A stretch of 26,936 nucleotides of DNA. Source: Candidatus Thorarchaeota archaeon (GTDB lineage Archaea; Asgardarchaeota; Thorarchaeia; Thorarchaeales; Thorarchaeaceae). How positions within the stretch are numbered: position 1 is the first letter of the stretch; each line of letters starts with the position of its first letter. The notes under the pieces are model-generated. The model did not search any database and was not told the origin of the DNA. It saw nothing but the letters and a program-made list of their open reading frames with translations. The position numbers and the translations under genes were made by a program. Of the stretch, positions 1 to 12,001 are shown piece after piece. The stretch covers positions 1 through 26,936 of the forward strand of contig DXJO01000019.1 of NCBI GenBank assembly GCA_019057475.1, read 5' to 3'.

Positions 1-227
1 GTAGAATCTGCAAAGCAGACCTCAATGAATCAGGAACCGAACATCAGTCAAGGACATTGATGTCCAGGATTGTGCAAGTTTCGGGCAACGGCTTTGCCCT
101 TGCTCCTATCCCTAGGATACCGATAGATAGGCTAATAAGCCAAACAGATGGGCGAGTGATAGAATCCCGGAACGCCATCCAAAACGCCCCAATTTGGGTC
201 GGGAAAGGGATCTAGGAGACCAAGACA

Positions 228-647
228 TTGGCAAGAACGAAAAAAGTCGGTAGTACAGGACGATATGGCGTTAGGTATGGGGCCAAACTACGGCGCAGAG
301 TTCTTGATATCGATAGGAAGCGTGCAGAGCCAGTGCGCTGTCCAGCGTGTGCCACCAAAGCTCTCAGGCGGGTGGCCGTTGGACTCTGGAGATGCAGAAA
401 GTGTGAGCTTCTCTTTGCTGGAGGAGCGTACGTTCCCTTCACAGACGCTGGGAAGGCCGCAAAGCGCGTTATAGCCCAAAGAGTTGCTGGTGACTTCCTT
501 GCTCTCAGAAGTGATGACGAGGAAGTTGTTCCGGAGTTCATGACACCTATCTCGAAAGAGATTGAGGAATCCGCAGAAGCCTCTCCAACTGAGGTGGATG
601 AAGGTCTCGAAACCGAAACTCCAGAGGTTTCTCCAGAAGAGGGCTAA
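228..647 (+). CDS. rpl37ae: 50S ribosomal protein L37Ae (eL43) with acidic C-terminal extension
   Basis: N-terminus KKVGSTGRYGVRYGAKLRRR, C4 zinc ribbon CPAC...WRCRKC and the FAGGAY motif; TTG start with GGAG upstream; position at the head of the Brix/pcc1/pfdB gene order. Confidence 0.96.
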   Translation: MARTKKVGSTGRYGVRYGAKLRRRVLDIDRKRAEPVRCPACATKALRRVAVGLWRCRKCELLFAGGAYVPFTDAGKAAKRVIAQRVAGDFLALRSDDEEVVPEFMTPISKEIEESAEASPTEVDEGLETETPEVSPEEG

Positions 648-670
648 GAGTAGACGCGAATCTCGTAATG

Positions 671-683
671 GGTTCCGTAACTG
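671..683 (+). repeat. 13-bp direct repeat, left copy (GGTTCCGTAACTG)
   Basis: Exact match to 9289-9301. Confidence 0.95.
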
Positions 684-712
684 CTTCAATGAACTTAGCC
701 AATCTTGGACAT
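684..712 (+). repeat. Left-end imperfect inverted repeat / putative TnpA-binding motif array
   Basis: CTTCAATGAA-CTTAGCCAATCTTGGACAT aligns to the reverse complement of 9259-9288 (GTTCATTGAAACTTGGACAAAGTTGGACAT) at 23 of 30 columns. CTT-initiated units fall at 684, 694 and 704 (10-bp period). Confidence 0.8.
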
Positions 713-718
713 TTATTA
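712..718 (+). promoter_or_regulatory. Possible TATA box for tnpA (leaderless)
   Basis: TTTATTA about 24 nt upstream of the ATG at 742, abutting the left-end motif array. Confidence 0.35.
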
Positions 719-741
719 GGTGACTATTGAAGTAAAGACCT

Positions 742-1330
742 ATGTTCTCAGTATCACAGGTTGCTCTCAGACTTGGTGTGTGTTCAAAGACCTTTAGACA
801 GTGGGACAAGAAAGGTCACATCAAGTGCTTGCGTACTCCAGGCGGACACCGGAGGATACCACTATCCGAGGTCAATAGACTCCTTGGTAAGTTGCACAGA
901 CAACTCATTGAAGGCCCATTTCGAAAACAGTGCGCGGTCTATGCACGAGCTTCAGACCATCGTCAGAAGACTGATGGTGCTCTTGATAGACAACTCAAGG
1001 TCCTTACTCAGGAATGCAAAAAACGCTACAGGACCAGTCCTTTAGTCTTCACTGACATTGGCTCAGGACTCAACATGCGGCGGAGGGGACTCAAGAAACT
1101 CCTTACATTGGCACAGAGAACAACTGTCAGTACTCTCATCATCACACATAAGGACAGACTAACCCGGTTCGGTCTAGAACTCATAGAACGTATACTCGAA
1201 GACTACGGTGTCAGACTTGAAGCCCCTATCAACCTGAACAGCAGAGTCCACAGGAGGAACTTGTCACTGATATGATGCACTCCTCGCATCCTTCTCTAGT
1301 AGGATCTATGGATTCCGATCGGGACAGACA
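742..1330 (+). pseudogene. tnpA: IS607-family serine transposase TnpA with two frameshifts near the 3' end (true pseudogene or sequencing error); 3' limit approximate
   Basis: N-terminal MerR-like wHTH (VALRLGVCSKTFRQWDKKGHIKCLRTPGGHRR) and serine recombinase motifs YARAS, DIGSGLN and THKDRLTRFG. The in-frame ORF stops at 1275. The canonical C-terminus continues in shifted frames: QQSPQEELVTDMM (frame from 1227), then ALLASFSSRIYGFRS (from 1277). Confidence 0.9.
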
Positions 1331-1343
1331 AAGATGACACAGG

Positions 1344-4300
1344 TCATTGCTCATAAAATCTCACTCCTCGCTCCTCTAGCTGCACCTTGATATCATCAGT
1401 GATCTCTTCTATAACGTCCTCATCAATATCGTATTGAGTGAGCATGCTATGTACTTCTTCTTCAATTATTGTGGGTTCAATTCCTCCTGATAATTTAGTC
1501 CAGTCAAGATAGTGGTGTATCCATCCTGTCACCTTCACGTCCATACGGCTTCCGTTATCTGACACAAGAATAGCTACTATTACTTGACCTCCCGACCCAT
1601 CTCTTTGTATACTCAAGCCCTCATATTGGAACCTTACAGGCCCTTGTTCCTCAATGAGCTCAATATACTCTCCTATCTCTTCTTGGACTAGACTCTGCAT
1701 CCTCTCATTTCCCTCAAGGTCTAGCTCACTGAGTAAGACTTCCATCCCCTTCCAGAGTAGCTCTTCTAGCTTCTCAGGTTGCATTTGCTCTGCCCTACTC
1801 TGTACCATCTCGTGTTTCCTCATCTCTCCAGTTACTTGCGACAACATCCTGAACTCCACCTTGTCCAGATGGAGCTTTATTTCAGGTGTCCACTCCTCAA
1901 GGATGTACGTCCCTGGGAACACTGGTTCATCTATCACTACCTGTCCTCTGCGACGTATCTGCATTAAGTGGATGCTCTCCCTGAACTCCCTTGGAAGACT
2001 CTTCGTGTCAGGAGTGTCGAACTCATGAACCACCCACTGTTGGTCGGGCGACTGATACATGAAACACCCAGTCAACAGAATGGCTGCCAGTTCTGGACCG
2101 CCCATCCGGAACTCCTCTATCATCTTATAACTCACAGGAATTGGGTTGTCATCGACCAACTCTACTCTCCAGCAGGTCCCATGTCTGTACATCGACTCGT
2201 TCAGGAGGGGATCAGGTTGACCTTTTGAACCATCAATGCGTTCCAGATACTCCTCGACATCACTCTTAGCCTTCTGACCTCTCTTCTCCAGTTCCTCAAT
2301 GGGGACACTCCTGAGCGGGCAGACAGAGGGGTCATGGTGGACACTGAGCCTGAGTCCGGTCAGTATTTCTGCCTGTAGGAATTGCTCTGCAGTTGGTGGT
2401 AGTCCCATCGTGGTGAACTTGAACGGACTCTTCCTCTCTACCCATGGTCTGAAGACCGTTGCATCACCCTTGTACTCGATGTCACTGAACCTGTTCCATG
2501 CAAACCGTCGTCCATTCACAACGACAGGTTCACACTCATAGTCAGGTCTGTGGAGCAGCTCCAGCGCATCCACAGTCCTCTTCACGAGTAGACGGACTGT
2601 TTCACCATTATCATCCAGTATCTCCTTGTCATCCTTATGAAACGTGAGCACATACATCTGTTCCTCTCTGTCAACTGATACATGACACTCCACGGACTCA
2701 CAGTTTCTGAATACTGCATTGATGAGCTCCAGTGACAGGTCGACACGTTCTCTCAGGTCAGAGGGAGGGCTACGTACATCAGTCATATCGATTGAGATGA
2801 AATTGCGTTCCTCTCTCAGAGTGTACGACCTGAGAAGTGTCACAGGCTCTCTTCGTCTTGTGAAGTACTCTAACCGTCCAACTGGTGTCCAGCTCTCACT
2901 GCCAGGTTCAAGGATCCACAGTCCAGTGAGTCCGCGTTGTTCTGCGACCATGATGGGGGTCCTGTCCGAGAGCCTAGATGCTGTGGCACACTCGCTTAGC
3001 TTTGTGAGGTCGGTTTCTCCCCAGTGAGGCCTGTCACGGAACAGCTCTTGAAGCATTTTGAGTGGTCCCTTCAGAGAGTCTTCGTGTACAGGAACAAGAG
3101 TGGCATTCATCTCATGGCTCCCAGATCGGTTCTGAAATATTAACCAAATTCCCATGGTGTCGATGGTCGGTTCCGATGTTTCGACACACTCACGTCTGAC
3201 CAAGACCATCTCTCCAAACCTGACATTACTGGCGTGTCTTGTATTTCCAGTGAGGATTCCAAGTGCTCTAGCCCTGTTGCGAAGACTCTGGAGGAGCTTT
3301 GTCCTGTGAAGGATGGACTCCCCGGTCTTGTGTGCGTCGTGGTACTTGGGAGTGAAACCGAGTCCCGTCAGCTGCCATGGAACAACATAGTCCCAGATCT
3401 CCTGTATTGCGTGTGTCATCCTCCCCACAATCTTTGCTGACCGGACCGCAGCGAGCAGAAGCAGAAACAGATGGTTCCCGGTTATCATAAGGATGTCCGG
3501 ATGACGCCGCAACAACTGTTCGACATACTGTCGTTGATGATAATTCAGACTGGGTGGTATCCATGACCGGACCTTTCGCAGTGTGTTCCAGAGACCTCTG
3601 CTCAAGGCATCAAGCTCGAGGAAACGCCGGATCGCACGCAACGAGTTCATCGCGTCCTGAGAGCTCTCACCACGCGTTCCTCTCACGCTCACAAGTATCT
3701 CTCTAAGGTCATCAAGGAATTCACTCCATTCCTTTGACTCCAATTTGTTTCTCCTGAGAAAGCTCAGTGCCTGTCCAATCTCAGCGAGCTCATTCCTTGC
3801 AATTGTAAGGTCATCACAGCCATCCACCACCATCAGCGCTTCGTGGGGCGGCCTCGTGTTGACCTTCAGATGGTCGACACCTAGACGTGTGGTCCGGTAT
3901 TCGCGTCGATGGTTGATATGGTGCATCGGTTCGAGACGCTTGACCCTGCCATCTGTCCTCAACTCTGTTCTGAACTGGTACGGAGTGAGTGTCAACCGAG
4001 AAGAGAGTGGTGATGGAGAGTCCGGAGTGTCAGGAAGAGGTGACCTGTGTGTCTTGACCTCTTTGGCATCGAGGCTGTCCAGCATTGGCGCGCAGATATG
4101 TGGTAGGAGTTCGAGCGCTGTATCGATGTCATCCTCCCCATAGGTGGTAAGGGGTCGGCCTCTGGTACCACCAGAACCTGTAGTCTTGTGGTAGATCTTC
4201 TGTCTTGGTTCATCTTGTTTCTTCTTGCCCTCATCCGACCGGAATCTCTCACCCCATTCTCGAAGGACATCGATCACTACCAACTTGGTCTCGACATCGT

Positions 4301-6812
4301 TCGGACTCTCAATCACTATCATTCGGACATCATCGTCAGCGGGGGCGTAGGCCCCGAAGCGTGGTGGTGGCATCGGTGTGTTCCACACTATCTCATCTAC
4401 ATAGTGCATCCACGGACTGCCTGTGTAGAAGGGTCCGACACAACGAGTGTCGTATCTCTGACTGGTAGCACTGAGCGGCACTGGGCGCCCGAACCACACC
4501 AATTTGGAGTCCTTTGGAACATCATCAAGGAACTGTATCAGGAACTCGTCTAGGACATCAGTCAGGTGCGCAGGTGTACTCTTTCGGACCATGTCCCATC
4601 CAGTGACAATGATGAATGGTCTGTGAGCCTGGCTCATGACGGAACGAGTTGACTTAGTCACATCACTGATTGAGTTTCTGTCATGGATGTATGCACGAAG
4701 GACGGATGACACATTAACGAACCGGACTCGTCTCTTGACGAATCGCTGTATTGACGACGAGTGTGACTTGAGTCTGAGTCGTGTTGCTCGGAGTACAGGG
4801 TCTGAGTATTCGCCGGTGAGGTCAAACCAGACAACATCCCTGTGCTTTCCTCGCACAAGTTGATGGACATACTGCAGACCATGCCACTTGGCTGCGACTC
4901 TCGCGGCTGACTCTGCTGGTGAGCCCTTTCCCGCCACAGACAGATACAAGGTGAACTTGCGGTCATCTCTCCTCTTTCTCCGGTAGCGGAACGAGTCGAA
5001 ATGTTCGAGTCGCTGTAATGGGGTTTCAACTGTGTCGTCTGCACCCTCAGAGAACACCACCAACCCCATGTGAAGCGACCGGTCCTCCGGCTGGAGCAGT
5101 TCCCTGTCAGCGATGCGTCCCTGTTGCGTCTTCCTGTATGCATCAATGACAAGTGACGGTAGATGTTCCCGTATCTCCTCCCAGTTCTCCTTTGAGTCCA
5201 CCACAAGGACTGCCTGTATCAGGTCATCAGGGGGGGAGTCGTCAGCACGTGCTATCCTCCGATAGTCTGAGATCAGAGCAGCAGTGTATGCACTGAGCTG
5301 CCTCTTCTCGTATCTCGACGGTGTTCCAGCGATGACTCTCTCCCACTCATCGTCTGTCATCTTACGTCGGTCAAGGACAGGCTCAACGACTCTGACAGTC
5401 AGGTCTGAAGACCTTGTGCCTACAGCATACAGGTCTAGGTTGAATGAGCTCCTTGTCTTGATCTCGATCACCATGCATGGTTCCCAGACCACTGTGTCCG
5501 GGGAGTCGTCAGCGTGAGGGAGGGTCTTCCTTCTGAAGAGCACGAGATCAACGCGACCTGTGCCATCTGCAACCGACACCTCGGCTATCAGAAGTAGTCC
5601 CGAAGTATCTGGTGCCATGGTGTCCCCATAGCGGATTGGACCGTACATGGTGAAGGGCGCTCGTGTTGAGTCGGCATGAGAGATGAAGTCGTGGAGAGCG
5701 ACACCCATTCTGCGGCTCTCCTCGTTAGCTAGCTGTAGTATGTGTTCCGCATCTCTATGTGTCAGAGTCCCATTCTCAACAAGGTCTTTGACAAACTCGA
5801 TATGGATCTTCCAGTCTGGGAGTAACTCTGTCTGACACTTGTCGACAATACGGAGGATGAGACCCTTGTAATCTTCAGACTCGTAACTGGGAACTGTACC
5901 CTCATCATCAGTCTTGTTCTCATCGATTGCGGGTACATCAAAGTGGATGAGTTCATCGTCGTCAACACACGCATCGCTCAAGCTTTGGGTCATCTCTGAG
6001 TCTTGCGTTGTTTCTGTATTGTCCATACTCTGCGAAATAGTCGATGTAATAGACTGGGAGCGCCCATTCCGTTTCCCGAACTGAGTACGTATCCTAAGTA
6101 CGATCTCTCTCAGTTCCTTTGCTCCATCAGGTGTGAAGTGTGCTCGGCCAGAGCGTCTATCAGTATAGACATAGTCCAAGAAGGGTGTCAGTCTGTCTAT
6201 GAGTTCGTCGATATATCTCTTAGCTGCACGTTGAGGAAGGCCATACTTCAGACACTGTCTGCATAGTTCAATCAGGTGACTTCGAATCATGTCTGCGAAG
6301 TCTAGCTCGGGCATGGAGTGTGTTGGGATGTATTCCGGGTCACGAGAGCTTCCAGGGTAACCAAAGACCATAGATCCATCCTGATTCACAATCCGTCGAA
6401 CACCAGGGAACGGGTATCGTTCCATGGCAACATCACGCAGTCTGCTTCCAGCATAGTCCCATAACTGGTTGAGATACCTCCTGTTCTCCCCTCTCCTCTT
6501 TCGCTTCACCTCAGTGTTACCATATCTTACTGAGGTCTTCAGCATGATCTTCTGAAAGTTGCGACGGATGTTGTTCTCGACATCTTGCAGTACTGTGGCT
6601 TTTGGCGACTTTTCCTGAACAGTCTTGTAGTACTCCCTTTTAGCATCATCCCAAATCCTTCGCATACCTTTCCTGCCATTGCCTCCTCCGTAGAGAGGAT
6701 AGGTTTTGTCTGTAACCCTTTCGCGTGCAAGGACCAGTGTAGCCGAGAGTCCAAGCTTAAGTCCCCTTGTCAGCACTCTTCCGGGCTTTCTCGGAGGCGT
6801 AGGAATTGGCAT
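1344..6812 (-). CDS. Large hypothetical protein (1822 aa) with a PD-(D/E)XK nuclease domain and a degenerate P-loop-like region
   Basis: 5.5-kb uninterrupted ORF with its own BRE-TATA promoter. Nuclease motifs AEVSV..GRVDLV...VIEIKT...RQLSAY. P-loop-like motifs LSVAGKGS, VVWFDLTGEY and FIIVTGWD. Confidence 0.8.
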   Translation of the reverse strand: MPIPTPPRKPGRVLTRGLKLGLSATLVLARERVTDKTYPLYGGGNGRKGMRRIWDDAKREYYKTVQEKSPKATVLQDVENNIRRNFQKIMLKTSVRYGNTEVKRKRRGENRRYLNQLWDYAGSRLRDVAMERYPFPGVRRIVNQDGSMVFGYPGSSRDPEYIPTHSMPELDFADMIRSHLIELCRQCLKYGLPQRAAKRYIDELIDRLTPFLDYVYTDRRSGRAHFTPDGAKELREIVLRIRTQFGKRNGRSQSITSTISQSMDNTETTQDSEMTQSLSDACVDDDELIHFDVPAIDENKTDDEGTVPSYESEDYKGLILRIVDKCQTELLPDWKIHIEFVKDLVENGTLTHRDAEHILQLANEESRRMGVALHDFISHADSTRAPFTMYGPIRYGDTMAPDTSGLLLIAEVSVADGTGRVDLVLFRRKTLPHADDSPDTVVWEPCMVIEIKTRSSFNLDLYAVGTRSSDLTVRVVEPVLDRRKMTDDEWERVIAGTPSRYEKRQLSAYTAALISDYRRIARADDSPPDDLIQAVLVVDSKENWEEIREHLPSLVIDAYRKTQQGRIADRELLQPEDRSLHMGLVVFSEGADDTVETPLQRLEHFDSFRYRRKRRDDRKFTLYLSVAGKGSPAESAARVAAKWHGLQYVHQLVRGKHRDVVWFDLTGEYSDPVLRATRLRLKSHSSSIQRFVKRRVRFVNVSSVLRAYIHDRNSISDVTKSTRSVMSQAHRPFIIVTGWDMVRKSTPAHLTDVLDEFLIQFLDDVPKDSKLVWFGRPVPLSATSQRYDTRCVGPFYTGSPWMHYVDEIVWNTPMPPPRFGAYAPADDDVRMIVIESPNDVETKLVVIDVLREWGERFRSDEGKKKQDEPRQKIYHKTTGSGGTRGRPLTTYGEDDIDTALELLPHICAPMLDSLDAKEVKTHRSPLPDTPDSPSPLSSRLTLTPYQFRTELRTDGRVKRLEPMHHINHRREYRTTRLGVDHLKVNTRPPHEALMVVDGCDDLTIARNELAEIGQALSFLRRNKLESKEWSEFLDDLREILVSVRGTRGESSQDAMNSLRAIRRFLELDALSRGLWNTLRKVRSWIPPSLNYHQRQYVEQLLRRHPDILMITGNHLFLLLLAAVRSAKIVGRMTHAIQEIWDYVVPWQLTGLGFTPKYHDAHKTGESILHRTKLLQSLRNRARALGILTGNTRHASNVRFGEMVLVRRECVETSEPTIDTMGIWLIFQNRSGSHEMNATLVPVHEDSLKGPLKMLQELFRDRPHWGETDLTKLSECATASRLSDRTPIMVAEQRGLTGLWILEPGSESWTPVGRLEYFTRRREPVTLLRSYTLREERNFISIDMTDVRSPPSDLRERVDLSLELINAVFRNCESVECHVSVDREEQMYVLTFHKDDKEILDDNGETVRLLVKRTVDALELLHRPDYECEPVVVNGRRFAWNRFSDIEYKGDATVFRPWVERKSPFKFTTMGLPPTAEQFLQAEILTGLRLSVHHDPSVCPLRSVPIEELEKRGQKAKSDVEEYLERIDGSKGQPDPLLNESMYRHGTCWRVELVDDNPIPVSYKMIEEFRMGGPELAAILLTGCFMYQSPDQQWVVHEFDTPDTKSLPREFRESIHLMQIRRRGQVVIDEPVFPGTYILEEWTPEIKLHLDKVEFRMLSQVTGEMRKHEMVQSRAEQMQPEKLEELLWKGMEVLLSELDLEGNERMQSLVQEEIGEYIELIEEQGPVRFQYEGLSIQRDGSGGQVIVAILVSDNGSRMDVKVTGWIHHYLDWTKLSGGIEPTIIEEEVHSMLTQYDIDEDVIEEITDDIKVQLEERGVRFYEQ

Positions 6813-6836
6813 TTCTACCAGATATATTCATAGTTA

Positions 6837-6852
6837 TTTATATACTTTTTCG
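6837..6852 (-). promoter_or_regulatory. Archaeal BRE + TATA promoter for the 1822-aa gene (leaderless)
   Basis: The minus strand reads CGAAAAAG-TATATAAA, with the TATA box ending 25 nt before the ATG at 6812. Confidence 0.75.
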
Positions 6853-6937
6853 GGTTAGGTCTGAAAGCAATTCATCCATTTAAACCCCTTCTGTCAGACA
6901 ATCACACATTTCCGACAACACTTTAATCTAATCTTGT

Positions 6938-7071
6938 TAATATTATATCGGTGTTTATAAGGATAAACCCATCATAAGACTCTGAGGAAGGACATTGACA
7001 CAAGAAATCCAGCGCCGTCCCTGGAAGCAGTACAAGCAGCATAAGACAATGGATGGTAATATTATATCGGT
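6938..7071 (+). repeat. 15-bp exact direct repeat TAATATTATATCGGT (6938-6952 and 7057-7071)
   Basis: Two identical copies 119 bp apart around the tnpB 5' region. Confidence 0.85.
6954..6960 (+). promoter_or_regulatory. Putative TATA box for tnpB
   Basis: TTTATAA in the AT-rich divergent intergenic region, 35 nt before the TTG at 6995, with an RBS-like GAGGAAGG at 6984-6991. Confidence 0.5.
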
Positions 7072-9286
7072 TGGATCTCGAAGACCCCACCAGTATCTTG
7101 TGGAGTCCTTTGCACTCAACTCCTACCACAGAAAGGTGTCAAGGAAGGGTAAAGGGAGAGTACCAGACCCCCAATTCAGAAAGAGGGCAGTGAGCCAGGT
7201 ACAGACTCTCTCAAGGACTGCTACTGGTCGGAAGTGTGGTTTCGTTGATCTCAAGACACTCACAGACCACTTTCAAAGATATTGTAAAGCAGTCAACCTT
7301 ATCCTTGAGCAAGTGTACTCCAATGACAAACACTCTGAGGAGATTGGTGAGAGACTGAGGAAGAGCAGGTCACGTGGTTATGTCGTACTGATGAAGGAAC
7401 ACGACCTCAAGTGGGCCAAGGACAACGAGTTCGGTGAGCTGGTCTTCGGAAGGATGCATAGGAATGCTCTTGAGGCTGCTGCTCGGATAATCCTCGCTGA
7501 CCACACAAGGAGGAAACTCGTTAGGACACTCGTGAATATACTTGTAGAGTCAGAGGATGACTTGAAAAGACTCATGAAGAACAAACGAGTCCCAGCTGAC
7601 CTCATCAGACGCGTCCGTGACCAGTCTGAAACAAAGCATAATGGGTCCGGTTTCTATTACGCTCTATCTGCATGCAAACAAGTCCGGCGAGTCCTTGACG
7701 AACTTGTTCTCTCGAAGATACCGAAACCCCCTGTTGAAAGGCAGGCCTCCGTTCATCATAATGGGCATGCCTCTATTTCAGAAGACAGACTTGCCTCTGT
7801 TTCTGCAGAGAGAACCGACTCACCACTGCCGAACGACCAAGCACCCAGAAAGCAACGCATTCGCGGAGGGCGCAGAGCAAGACAGAGAGCGAAAGTCAGG
7901 GAGTCATGGAAGGACAAGTCCAAGAATTCTGAGAGTATCAAAGACCTCATTCGCTCTGAGGTCACTCGTTGGAGCAAGGAGGGCTTTCCATTCACGACGC
8001 CTGTTTTTAAGGCAACCACTGAGGACTTCAGCGCGAGCACAGAGAACATGACTGGTCAAGGTTATTGGGTTAGGTCTGACCCTGAACGACCTGACGAGAT
8101 CATCCTCTACATCAAGACCCCACCCGGTCTACAGAGTGCTGAATGTGATTCAGACTCACCCTATCGGAGTCAGACACTCCGTTTCAGGTTCCTGAACTGG
8201 TTCCCTAGGAAGGCCAAGAGAGCGCAAAAAAAGGCGGAAGAGGCAAGAGCGGCTGGGAACATTTCTAGGGCAGAGCAACTGACTTTCAGGGTTGCCGTCT
8301 TCACAGACATGAGCGAGCAGTTGATGAACACCATTGCACTGCACCATGTCGCGCGAGAACTGACAAACCTCAAGGCACGGAAAGACCTAGACACAGAAAG
8401 AATTGTGGAGCTTGAGGGACAACTCAAGAAACTGCGAACATCTCGAAGGTCTGCTCCCCCACGACTCCAGCTCCGAGGGAACAGAGTCATCTTCTCAATA
8501 CCGTTCCTGTCACCAGATAAGAAACTACTTGAGAAGACACTTGAGACCCCTGAACTCACAGCCTATGCAGGGGTTGATAGGGGGATACGCTTTCCAGTGG
8601 TGTTGTCAGTCTGTGATGAATATGGCACATATCACGACAGACACATCAGTCACAAAGGGTTGTTCGCAAAGCGAGAACGACTCAGACATAGGACCAGAGA
8701 ACTCAGTTCACAGATAGACAGAAGAAAGAACAACTGGGAGAAGAAGCACCCGGGGCTGCAGGCACCAGCCTATATCCTGAAAAAGGAGATGGAGCTGGCA
8801 TCCGTGTGGCGAAAGGTCAGACGCCTCGACCGCGAGATCTCCCATCTAGTCGCATCTGCGACGGTCTGGTTCTGTGAGAAGCATAGGGTGAAGACTGTCT
8901 ACTTCGAGGACCTCCGTTCCTTCCAAGGGAAGGGCGGGATGCACTCACACAGCTGGAGATTATCGACAAACCTTTGGGGACTCATGATTGAGGGAGTCAG
9001 GTATCGAAGACAGGCCATGGGTCACAGGAGAGGTGGTGTCTGGACAGTGAACCCCGCGTGGACCTCACAGACCTGCAGTCGATGTGGAGAGAGAGGTGTC
9101 CGTGTGAAGCGCCCCGATGACACAGAGGAGATGAGAGGAGGAGAGCATTTCTTCTGTCCTCACTGTCAGATAAGCCTGCACGCCGACGTTAACGCGGCGC
9201 GTAACATTATTAAAGTAAAGCACGAGGCCAGTGCCGTTCCTGGCCGGACAGGACAGCGATGTCCAACTTTGTCCAAGTTTCAATGA
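6995..9286 (+). CDS. tnpB: Large TnpB/Cas12-like RNA-guided endonuclease (763 aa; 698 aa if the GTG at 7190 is used)
   Basis: RuvC-I AGVDRG, RuvC-II VYFEDL, VNPAWTSQTCSRCG...FFCPHC zinc finger and RuvC-III HADVNAARNI. All three acidic catalytic residues are present. Confidence 0.92.
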   Translation: MTQEIQRRPWKQYKQHKTMDGNIISVGSRRPHQYLVESFALNSYHRKVSRKGKGRVPDPQFRKRAVSQVQTLSRTATGRKCGFVDLKTLTDHFQRYCKAVNLILEQVYSNDKHSEEIGERLRKSRSRGYVVLMKEHDLKWAKDNEFGELVFGRMHRNALEAAARIILADHTRRKLVRTLVNILVESEDDLKRLMKNKRVPADLIRRVRDQSETKHNGSGFYYALSACKQVRRVLDELVLSKIPKPPVERQASVHHNGHASISEDRLASVSAERTDSPLPNDQAPRKQRIRGGRRARQRAKVRESWKDKSKNSESIKDLIRSEVTRWSKEGFPFTTPVFKATTEDFSASTENMTGQGYWVRSDPERPDEIILYIKTPPGLQSAECDSDSPYRSQTLRFRFLNWFPRKAKRAQKKAEEARAAGNISRAEQLTFRVAVFTDMSEQLMNTIALHHVARELTNLKARKDLDTERIVELEGQLKKLRTSRRSAPPRLQLRGNRVIFSIPFLSPDKKLLEKTLETPELTAYAGVDRGIRFPVVLSVCDEYGTYHDRHISHKGLFAKRERLRHRTRELSSQIDRRKNNWEKKHPGLQAPAYILKKEMELASVWRKVRRLDREISHLVASATVWFCEKHRVKTVYFEDLRSFQGKGGMHSHSWRLSTNLWGLMIEGVRYRRQAMGHRRGGVWTVNPAWTSQTCSRCGERGVRVKRPDDTEEMRGGEHFFCPHCQISLHADVNAARNIIKVKHEASAVPGRTGQRCPTLSKFQ

Positions 9287-9288
9287 AC
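9259..9288 (-). repeat. Right-end imperfect inverted repeat / TnpA-binding motif array
   Basis: TGTCCAA tandem at 9260 and 9270 (10-bp period) followed by TTCAATGAAC; inverted partner of 684-712. Confidence 0.8.
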
Positions 9289-9301
9289 GGTTCCGTAACT
9301 G
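9289..9301 (+). repeat. 13-bp direct repeat, right copy (GGTTCCGTAACTG)
   Basis: Exact match to 671-683. Confidence 0.95.
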
Positions 9302-9312
9302 AGGGAACCTTG

Positions 9313-9867
9313 ATGCCATCTATCCTAATCACAACTTCTCGACGGACATCTAACAGAGTTCGCTCTTTTGTACGCGACCTCTGGACTGTGCTCCCCGGCA
9401 CTGAGCGATTCAACCGCGGCGGAATGAGCATAGCCGAACTTTCGTCACGAATCAAGCAGTCGAGAGCAAGTGCTGCCATTATAGTGTCGCTTTTCAAGGG
9501 GAATCCGAGGAGTCTGCAGATATTATCCCCAGATGGAGGGCAACTAATGGAGGTGCAGATGGAGAGTGCCAAGCTTCGCCGCGAGGTGGCTTCCTCACGC
9601 GGTCCGAAAATGCGTGCTATCCATTCGATAGCCGTCCAGAGTGGAGCTGGTGAACAGACCAGAGCAATCGCTGAAATGCTGAGCGCGCTCTTAGATACAC
9701 CTATTGCTGAATCAACGGAAATTGTGGCTGTTGGATCAGAAGGCATGAACGAGGTTGTAGTGTGGCTTCAGGACTTCCCAACCGGCAAAACTCTCTGGAC
9801 ACATTATCATGCAAAAGATGGTCTTGAGATCGGGCCAAGGATGAGGATCACCTCGGTTACCGTGTAG
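9313..9867 (+). CDS. Brix-domain (Imp4-like) ribosome biogenesis protein
   Basis: ILITTSRRTSNRVRSFVRDL...FNRGGMS...GNP...EIGPRMRI. Start moved to the ATG at 9313 (GAGGG RBS) because the upstream in-frame part lies inside the transposon end. Confidence 0.9.
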   Translation: MPSILITTSRRTSNRVRSFVRDLWTVLPGTERFNRGGMSIAELSSRIKQSRASAAIIVSLFKGNPRSLQILSPDGGQLMEVQMESAKLRREVASSRGPKMRAIHSIAVQSGAGEQTRAIAEMLSALLDTPIAESTEIVAVGSEGMNEVVVWLQDFPTGKTLWTHYHAKDGLEIGPRMRITSVTV

Positions 9868-9988
9868 TTCTTTGTCAGCTCATTGCAGAACAGAAAGCGC
9901 CATAGCATTGGGAACAAGAGAACTCGTTTCGAAGTCCTTTTACGAGGATGGTCACCAAGAACAGCTATTAACACAGAGTGTGGAAACC

Positions 9989-10270
9989 ATGACCTCAAAG
10001 CCAATTCAGAGTGCAAGTGCAACGCTTTCCATTGATTTGGAATCGGACGAATTGGCCAAAATGATACAATCTGCTCTCTTACCAGAAATCGACGCATCTC
10101 CCACAGACAGGTGCGCAGCCAGCATTTCAGTTGAGGGGGCTACCCTAATCATCGAACTTACAGCAGGAGACCTCACCGCCTTGAGGGCTGCAATGAACTC
10201 CTATCTGGCGTGGGTGTCTGGCTGTAAGATGGCTGTGGAATCCGTGACTGATACAAGCCAAAACCCTTAA
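9989..10270 (+). CDS. pcc1: KEOPS complex subunit Pcc1
   Basis: ALLPE...LIIELTAGDLTALRAAMNSYLAWV motif and position between Brix and pfdB; likely start is the ATG at 9989. Confidence 0.9.
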   Translation: MTSKPIQSASATLSIDLESDELAKMIQSALLPEIDASPTDRCAASISVEGATLIIELTAGDLTALRAAMNSYLAWVSGCKMAVESVTDTSQNP

Positions 10271-10329
10271 GTCGTGACTCATCAGGCGCACTTTGAAACG
10301 CCCCGCACTTGTAAGGGAGTTCGACAATC

Positions 10330-10692
10330 ATGGCTCAGACATTACCCCCCGCCTTGGAACAGGACCTGCGAAAATTCGATACCATGCAGCGTAACTATGA
10401 AATGATGGCTGCGAAATTGCAGACATGGCAGATGGAATTGAATCAGATTAAAGTAACTCTTGAAGAGCTAAACAAGCAGCCTGATGATGTTGTGACCTAC
10501 AAGAGTGTCGGGCAAATCCTGTTCAAGGTTGACAAGCCCACAACAGCCAAGGAGCTTGCAGATCGAGAAGAAGTTCTCGAGAAGACACTGAAATCCATGA
10601 ATAAGAAAGTAGAATCACTCGCAGCTAGTCTGAAGGAGCTTCAGGAGAAGATACAGCTCGAGCTTAGCAAACAGAATCTCAGGCTCCAGTGA
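10330..10692 (+). CDS. pfdB: Prefoldin subunit beta
   Basis: 120 aa, coiled coil - YKSVGQILFK hairpin - coiled coil; conserved synteny. Confidence 0.93.
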   Translation: MAQTLPPALEQDLRKFDTMQRNYEMMAAKLQTWQMELNQIKVTLEELNKQPDDVVTYKSVGQILFKVDKPTTAKELADREEVLEKTLKSMNKKVESLAASLKELQEKIQLELSKQNLRLQ

Positions 10693-10997
10693 GAGACATG
10701 AATCCAGTATTCGAGATTGGATTGCCCGAGTTATCGGGACCTGACCTTGAGCAGTTGACAGAAGAGTGTGAAGCGGCTATCACGCAGCACATCTTCGATA
10801 AGATACCAAAAAAGAGCATCTCAGAGCTCACCGTGACCTGTATACTCGACCTTGATAAGACTCTTGAGTTCGAAGTACAACTGGACTTGGCGCAGGAATA
10901 CGACACCGGTCACTCACTTGACGACATACTGGAGGGAGCAAACAGATTCGGAACAGAGTGGCTTGAGAAACGGCTCGCGGAGATGAAGACCCAATGA
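10689..10997 (+). CDS. DUF3194-like small acidic protein
   Basis: IGLPELS N-terminus, ~100 aa, typical position between pfdB and DHH. Confidence 0.65.
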   Translation: MRDMNPVFEIGLPELSGPDLEQLTEECEAAITQHIFDKIPKKSISELTVTCILDLDKTLEFEVQLDLAQEYDTGHSLDDILEGANRFGTEWLEKRLAEMKTQ

Positions 10998-12001
10998 ATC
11001 TCATTTCCCTCTTGAAGTCATCTTTTCATCCCGTAATTCTAGGGCATCATAATGCAGATCCTGATGCAGTTTGCTCAATGATTGCAATCGCGGATATTTG
11101 TAGGAAACTCAACCCCAAGAGTATGCCCAAGCTTGCGTGCGATGATGTAAGCAGGCTCTCAATGCAAGTACTCGATAAATTCGCACCTACTGCCGAGATT
11201 CTTGAAACAGTTGAAGATGATCACGATCTGGTAATCCTTGTAGATACAAATAGCCTGCTACAACTCGGTCCTAATCTCAAGGATGTCGTTGTCAATCCTG
11301 AACGAACCTTGGTGATTGATCATCATGAACCTAACCCAGAGCTTGACAGCATTGCGAAGCATGCAGTTGTACGGAGCGATAGATACTCTGCTTGCGAGAT
11401 TATTGCGGGTCTATATGATGAGGTCGAATTAGATATTGGAGCGGACATCGCAAATCTACTCCTCACTGGGATGTTGTTTGACACGCGCAGATTCCTATAT
11501 GCAGACGAGGATACTCTCGTTGCTGCAACCAGGTTAGTGCGCAATGGAGCTGACTATCAAGCGTGCATGAGTTCGCTGGCCATCAAACCTAGTAGGTCGG
11601 AACGGATAGCGAGGCTCAAGGCTGCCTGTCGATTACAGGTCCACAATATTGACAACTGGATCATCGTCACATCCAGAATCAAGGCCTTTGAGGCCAGTGC
11701 ATGCCGTGGACTGATTGGGATGGGGGCCGATGTCGCTATCGTTAGTGGGAGTCCATCCAATGGAGAAGTACGTCTGAGCTCTAGGAGCACCACGGAGTTC
11801 TATGAGAAGACTGGCGTTAATCTGGGACGTGACGTGATGGAGCCGCTCGGAGAATTAATCGAGGGAAAGGGAGGCGGGCATCCCAACGCGGCTGGAGCAA
11901 ATGGCCGGATACTCGGAGATAAGGCCGCCTCTAGAGCAGTACGACTCATTAGGGACGCAATCAAGAGAGGGCCATCACCTGAGAGTGATGAGTCATCCTA
12001 A
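10994..12001 (+). CDS. DHH/DHHA1 family phosphoesterase
   Basis: GHHNADPDA, ILVDT, VIDHH, FDT, SSRS and GGGHPNAAG motifs. Confidence 0.93.
   Translation: MNLISLLKSSFHPVILGHHNADPDAVCSMIAIADICRKLNPKSMPKLACDDVSRLSMQVLDKFAPTAEILETVEDDHDLVILVDTNSLLQLGPNLKDVVVNPERTLVIDHHEPNPELDSIAKHAVVRSDRYSACEIIAGLYDEVELDIGADIANLLLTGMLFDTRRFLYADEDTLVAATRLVRNGADYQACMSSLAIKPSRSERIARLKAACRLQVHNIDNWIIVTSRIKAFEASACRGLIGMGADVAIVSGSPSNGEVRLSSRSTTEFYEKTGVNLGRDVMEPLGELIEGKGGGHPNAAGANGRILGDKAASRAVRLIRDAIKRGPSPESDESS

Follow-up and report, generated by a model that had tools for sequence, protein, structure and literature searches.

An 8.6-kb IS607-type element bounded by a 13-bp repeat in a Thorarchaeota genome carries a broken serine tnpA, an aCas1-like gene and TnpB

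Transposons of the IS607 family make no target duplication (PMC6188088). Homing by TnpB has been described as a process of break-stimulated recombination (PMC10055086; 10.1101/2023.11.20.567912). In Asgard archaea, loci that combine a Cas1-like protein with TnpB are already known to be flanked by repeats, and the frequency of such repeats led to the proposal that this protein, aCas1, is a transposase (PMC10691335). A link of aCas1–TnpB to IS607 ends, and retention of target DNA on the left side only, were not found in the literature searched. Here we analyse a 26,936-nucleotide stretch of Candidatus Thorarchaeota DNA (the window), which holds an 8.6-kb IS607-type element bounded by a 13-bp repeat and carrying a broken serine transposase gene (tnpA), an aCas1-like gene and TnpB. 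The missing duplication that defines IS607 insertions is a rule broken by this element and at nine further loci, and kept by 65 short paired copies (MITEs) and about 20 full elements; we read the departure as a secondary change.

The element sits between the host genes rpl37ae (228–647, + strand; Pfam PF01780, E 1e-28) on the left and a Brix-like rRNA maturation gene (9313–9867, +; PRK00933/PRK03972 matches and synteny) on the right. Its left boundary begins with a putative TAM, TGGG (669–672, +), which is seen in family left flanks, includes the GG crossover core (671–672) and is assigned its role from CboIStron. The left repeat copy (671–683, +) is followed by the remainder of an IS607-type left end (684–714, +) with TTGGACA-like boxes at 695–701 and 705–711. 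Then comes a tnpA pseudogene (742–1340, +) that matches the IS607 serine transposase model NF033518 at 141.7 bits (cutoff 110) and is frameshifted near 1219 and 1276; the tnpA of other strains has one additional nucleotide at both places, and the frame is intact in sister copy L141. A gene for a 1822-aa aCas1-like protein (1344–6812, −; recognized by a predicted structure match and motifs) and a gene for a 763-aa TnpB with a zinc finger (6995–9286, +; PF07282; NF040570 at 60 bits, below the cutoff of 100) complete the set of only three genes, none of which is a family B polymerase gene. The two are arranged head-to-head in the loci examined.

The TnpB translation contains all three RuvC acidic motifs (GVDRG, YFEDL and HADVN), and by its sequence features, namely the RuvC D-E-D residues, the zinc finger and a predicted omegaRNA at the right end, the protein is of the RNA-guided nuclease type. 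The right end and predicted omegaRNA scaffold (9130–9288, +; 5′ limit uncertain) end in CAATGAAC, have a folding z of −3.8, carry inverted boxes at 9260–9266 and 9270–9276, and are conserved in more than 140 copies. Next to them lies the right repeat copy (9289–9301, +), which consists of the GG core plus the first 11 nt of the predicted guide and runs into host DNA; the 20-nt guide itself (9291–9310, +) is host flank, predicted from the known guide placement of IS607 TnpBs. The element has a TnpA (as a pseudogene) with an N-terminal HTH and a serine recombinase domain, a GG core at its junctions and in the empty target, and the boxes of an IS607 member. Records that share its ends are from Ca. 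Thorarchaeota, an Asgard host. Separately, window positions 1–91 are the right end of another IS607-type MITE family, which ends in CGGGCAAC directly before GG and occurs many times in the genome, frequently at the ends of contigs.

The 13-bp repeat and its flanks, as first described in a sequence-only reading of this DNA, are exact at both junctions: GGTTCCGTAACTG occurs at 671–683 and 9289–9301, with no third copy in the 3.3-Mb genome. That reading also held that a repeat extending beyond GG is unexpected for IS607, as is borne out by the published behaviour of the family (PMC6188088); the chance of 11 matching bases after GG at a pre-defined junction pair is about 2e-7. A polishing artefact is unlikely, because the Logan assembly of the probable source run, a different assembly though not independent data, has 0 differences from positions 200–10200 and contains no empty-allele joint. 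The core is present in single copy in the empty alleles of five congeneric genomes (L002–L006), and the 13 bp are therefore host DNA. An empty-site joint of 670 to 9289 occurs in three other runs, and empty and element-bearing DNA are found together in the same samples. When joined (671–683/9302–9309), the empty site holds a small inverted repeat (GGTTCC...GGAACC) and a GAGG that is likely a ribosome-binding sequence for the Brix-like gene.

The left repeat copy is immediately preceded by TGGG. The family target consensus is AG/GG (the slash marks the junction), with G at −1 in 61/65 and A at −2 in 50/65 left flanks; among long elements AGGG (n = 8) outnumbers TGGG (n = 3), which is a minority variant. 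Against the predicted guide, the left junction shows 11 contiguous matches and 13/20 overall, with mismatches at +12 to +15. The point that the occupied left site keeps both TGGG and an 11-nt seed match holds, and these distal mismatches plausibly prevent self-cleavage. In addition, a contig from another study (run X5, record 22) crosses the left junction over positions 635–832 with 15 differences and no gap, which suggests the same insertion in a diverged strain.

Sister copies reveal what the left repeat copy replaced. Six of them, 87–93% identical to the window element, have GG followed by a TTGCAAACAG-like tip, with the first box 21 nt on. The window copy has a 22-nt spacing from GG to box and 11 host bases instead of 10 tip bases. 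One sister (G001:C31) has a right flank unrelated to that of the window and no identity beyond GG, and the same element occupies several unrelated sites with different flanks. Sisters from which aCas1 is deleted have normal tips, and both copies of the window element with intact aCas1 have the repeat. The second of these is a sister of 93% identity that lies within the final codons of rps27ae (L155 and L156); its left junction, present in L147 as well, is seen in three assemblies. In this copy 9 host bases follow the GG of the left junction, where 8 tip bases are lost. Its right flank repeats those 9 bases with one mismatch, and they occur once in 14 empty alleles; tnpA is also broken in L156. 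The two copies share a retained-minus-lost difference of +1 and differ in repeat length (13 versus 11), and their joints lie at imperfect microhomologies (4/5 and 3/4), as judged post hoc.

Among the 65 MITEs, tip deviations that match the copy's own flank number 15 against 14.3 expected, and routine conversion of MITE left tips to their flank is rejected on this count. Normal tips in the sisters, the unrelated right flank of one of them and this null result together argue against the tip as a programmed guide and against a fixed att site. Other left tips with a 22-nt register occur in L187, L196, L193 and L197; L187 and L196 share one shifted tip at two loci, and shifted tips can therefore be inherited.

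Retention recurs elsewhere. Repeats of at least 9 nt with G at −1 flank 9/70 long TnpB elements, the window included, versus 1.0 expected by permutation. Empty alleles confirm left-side target retention at ten loci: the window, rps27ae, L033, L035, L044, L046, L176, L173, L191 and G000:C54 (a count that leaves out L203, L192, L221, L042 and L172). The number of nucleotides retained after the dinucleotide is 6, 7, 7, 7, 9, 9, 10, 11, 11 and about 60, and the repeats are 8–13 bp or about 62 bp long, or there is none, with repeats below 6 nt being undetectable. At L182, L047 and L212 candidate repeats were not borne out by empty alleles and are excluded, and L104 proved to be a chance pattern match. 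On a quick TnpB tree, the ten loci are scattered among normal-ended relatives, requiring at least six changes.

No recognizable left end is present at 8/10 of the scarred loci, and aCas1 is kept in seven of those eight; there it is intact, with the junction 47–144 nt past its stop in 6/7. The L033 locus (3401–11692), a related element at the 3′ end of pcc1 in G005 for which window positions 10260–10270 are the empty site, keeps a tnpA remnant, which argues that copies lacking the left end derive from left-end-bearing kin. This insertion is in the same conserved operon as that of the window. At L191 (4088–4150 and 12336–12400), a duplication of about 60 nt rebuilds the 3′ end of a host gene, and its core and seed changes are synonymous. 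Retention is found in 9/20 aCas1-bearing elements versus 1/12 others (Fisher p 0.05, with kin non-independent), and one repeat, at L176, occurs without aCas1. Plain GG junctions bound the approximately 20 full elements, 11 of them with aCas1, and the 65 MITEs show no target-site duplication. Across loci, right junctions are always of the TnpA type, AAC/GN, and a perfect seed at a left junction never exceeds 11 nt.

In a mirror test, no right end, where sequence is constrained by the RNA, carried a repeat of left-flank sequence; a weak excess of matches of at least 10 nt (5 versus 1.4) was due to A/G-rich flanks that lie away from the ends. Right copies at L156, L173, L176, L191 and L223 frequently depart from the empty allele within the core or at the first one or two guide bases, often with T for C. 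The L200 right flank resembles a left-end consensus, perhaps through a tandem or nested insertion. A comparison of left tips with right flanks, proposed in the sequence-only reading to separate variable from constant sites, gave a divided outcome: ten loci do carry variable, locally matching repeats, and most copies (G001:C31, the MITEs and the full elements with plain junctions) share GG only. Variable repeats, GG-only junctions in many full elements and the lack of MITE bias thus fail to support either a fixed att site or routine guided integration by TnpA.

The aCas1-like protein received no name from Pfam, NCBIfam, PDB-sequence or Atlas searches, and no Cas1 match from Pfam or NCBIfam. In its AF2 model (pLDDT 80), residues 1–230 are modelled as a Cas1-like helical domain, with a best Z of 11.7 among five Cas1 structures (4n06, VIA; rmsd 3.6, 179 aligned); this Z is borderline for a helical domain, and motifs and context carry the assignment. 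Specifically, E79, H165 and D174 are conserved as a catalytic-type E/H/D set, and a PD-(D/E)xK motif lies at about 405–510. These features fit the Asgard aCas1–TnpB loci as published (PMC10691335). Residues 613–850 have a RecA/KaiC-like fold (Z 12.9 to KaiC/RAD51 paralogues) with degenerate Walker motifs. For the C-terminal half no fold scored above Z 6.4, which does not imply a new fold; a weak second match to the Cas1 helical domain at about 1000–1170 (Z 5–5.7) is below the reliable range.

Some relatives are associated with tRNA or rRNA genes. At G000:C54 (L223:11062–19025), a 9-kb unit stands in place of a tRNA-Lys gene with only short homology on both sides, and the empty site in G002/G003 is the intron-bearing tRNA-Lys gene that the module replaced. 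The tRNA-Lys-directed modules lie among differing neighbour genes. In aCas1–TnpB modules of three TnpB clades (L223, L172, L203, L198, L190, L174 and L169), the guide resembles the 5′ end of tRNA-Lys(CTT), and an inverted tRNA-Lys that mismatches the guide lies 45–115 nt beyond the right end. The guides of L186, L192 and L219 resemble parts of a tRNA-His gene 130–300 nt away, with seed mismatches to their own copy and better matches to the alleles of other strains. A second class, L111 (G000:C9 15349–23015), combines a 554-aa TnpB with aCas1; its guide matches the intron-less 16S rRNA 3′ region, and the neighbouring 16S gene has an insertion there. Guides against tRNA-Lys, tRNA-His or 16S rRNA that lie next to a copy of that gene with mismatches or an intron have, as read from the sequences, the anatomy of cleave-and-rescue homing.

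We consider the repeat to be, with somewhat better than even probability, a scar of TnpB homing whose length is capped by self-immunity, the cap being indicated by the absence of any perfect seed longer than 11 nt. In the proposed course of events, TnpA would insert the element at GG without duplication, as the canonical right junction and kin indicate. The right flank would then become the guide, and TnpB, judging from other TnpBs, would cut empty alleles on the TAM-distal side. The left broken end would keep the TAM and the start of the protospacer and could pair with the occupied allele via left-flank homology, laying its host tail over the left tip; if trimming is incomplete and the ends join where they match briefly and imperfectly, 11 host bases would remain in place of 10 tip bases. 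The scars that survive would be those too short or too mismatched for recutting. Host recombination would be enough for these steps, and aCas1 may assist; enrichment of retention with aCas1, and intact aCas1 in loci lacking the left end, are sequence patterns that hint that it takes part.

This homing-scar explanation is consistent with retained DNA that is variable, host-derived and located at the TAM-proximal side of the predicted protospacer. A tail laid over the tip by flank homology also predicts a retained length near the lost length, as seen in both copies with intact boxes (11 for 10 and 9 for 8; two cases only). An archaeal TnpB cuts at +15–18/+20–28 (PMC10640517), a 10-nt guide permits binding without cutting (PMC13507860), and in Haloferax microhomology joining follows self-targeting (PMC7521656). 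From its seed match, TnpB may likewise bind its own left junction without cutting. In SisTnpB1, mismatches at +11–15 reduce cutting weakly, and an 11-nt match may therefore not be fully safe. The right end offers ACGG, without G at −3, the position at which CboTnpB discriminates most; by analogy, the missing G would protect this end from cutting. Counting against a homing scar are the 60-nt duplication at L191, longer than a cut at +15–28 could leave, the replacement at G000:C54 with only short homologies, the two patterns that hint at a part for aCas1, and the MITEs, which may also make guides yet carry no scars.

The repeat could instead be made by aCas1, which would catalyse TnpB-guided joining of the left DNA end 6–11 nt into the protospacer as a casposase-like duplication, with TnpB marking or cutting the guide-matched site and the PD-(D/E)xK domain trimming; we regard this as the main alternative, and on balance unlikely. 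The Cas1-like fold with conserved E/H/D, the published transposase proposal from repeat-flanked loci (PMC10691335), casposase duplications of 13–14 bp (PMC8464041) and the clustering of retained lengths at 6–11 nt all speak for it. So do the repeat in both intact-aCas1 copies and normal tips in aCas1-deleted sisters, the enrichment of retention among aCas1 bearers (Fisher p 0.05 among non-independent kin), the differing neighbours of the tRNA-Lys-directed modules, and the 9-kb replacement at G000:C54. However, neither duplication length nor left terminus is fixed, 11 elements with aCas1 end in plain GG junctions, the repeat at L176 comes without aCas1, the TnpA type is kept at every right junction, and copies lacking the left end come from left-end-bearing kin (the L033 remnant). 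Moreover, the tracking of lost length by retained length is not required of an integrase. In a wider and similarly doubtful form, aCas1 and the giant TnpB would constitute an RNA-guided Cas1-based integration or homing machine, its modules still spreading without TnpA and the left end; with no greater likelihood, this spread would be into essential genes (tRNA, rRNA and ribosomal proteins), at times accompanied by a recoded copy for rescue. If integration is guided, this cargo, a Cas1-like protein that the sequence-only reading had missed, is a better candidate than TnpA.

Quite improbable, in our judgement, is illegitimate recombination of empty with occupied alleles that needs no TnpB, its products being filtered by selection for TnpB escape and for gene ends made whole again. 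It would account for long duplications, and fits retained bases that restore the rps27ae stop and, at L191, the last 60 nt of a gene, as well as the presence of both kinds of DNA in the same samples; it is disfavoured by the lack of an evident rescued function in the window or L033, by MITEs without scars and by the absence of a mirror case at the right end (a weak test, given RNA-constrained right ends). Very unlikely is the attP-like excised circle of the earlier reading, in which a site-matching left tip programmes the serine recombinase to integrate, guided by TnpB or relying on homology. Repeats are variable and locally matching, as that proposal expects, and altered tips can move, some +1-register tips being inherited between loci (L187/L196). 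However, the tip here is host DNA and the normal TTGCAAACAG-type tip of the six sisters does not match flanks, tnpA is broken in the window and in L156, 8/10 repeat-bearing loci lack a recognizable left end, and serine recombinases exchange over 2 bp without duplication (PMC6188088). A fixed att site, a chance match or an assembly artefact is just as hard to credit: the genome is a metagenome assembly and about half the positions of the target agree with the left-tip consensus, but insertions of the element are found at many unrelated sites whose flanks differ, which speaks against the constant att site once suggested, and the second assembly is identical, three assemblies contain the rps27ae left junction, and ten loci are verified.

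As homing scars, the repeats would preserve in sequence a record of cut-and-copy homing by TnpB among uncultured Asgard archaea, mark a route from transposon to fixed RNA-guided homing element, and explain the published, unexplained repeats around aCas1–TnpB loci. If aCas1 makes the joint, a Cas1-family integrase would be steered by a Cas12 ancestor, which bears on the origin of CRISPR adaptation and on programmable insertion. Either way, these junctions define exact substrates (TAM, guide and retained length) with which aCas1 can be put to a first test, and the recurrent scar points to how a giant aCas1 and a guided nuclease may spread.

Compared with casposons, which carry a Cas1-solo casposase, the locus shares a Cas1-like integrase candidate, a 13-bp direct repeat, imperfect inverted ends and, in some relatives, residence in tRNA genes; it differs in that a PolB gene is missing, duplication length and terminus vary, the junctions have a GG core and TnpB is the partner. 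With TnpB cut-and-copy homing, it shares a predicted right-flank guide that would target the empty site; in the portions of the published accounts drawn on here (PMC10055086; 10.1101/2023.11.20.567912), products are exact restorations and tip-replacing scars were not found. The Asgard aCas1–TnpB loci (Cas1H-Asgard-1/-2; PMC10691335) have in common with it the Asgard host, the Cas1-like protein with TnpB and the flanking repeats, whereas in this case IS607 ends enclose the pair together with a tnpA, and empty alleles identify the repeats as left target remnants of variable length that many copies lack. Finally, the features shared with the IS607 family (IS607, IS1535, ISC1926 and CboIStron) are a MerR-HTH serine TnpA, a GG core at both junctions, a G-rich target, subterminal repeat boxes and a right-end TnpB with a flank-derived guide. 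Unlike those members, this element is 8.6 kb long, carries a giant divergent aCas1 gene and a 763-aa TnpB, and keeps an 11-nt remnant of its target at the left end.
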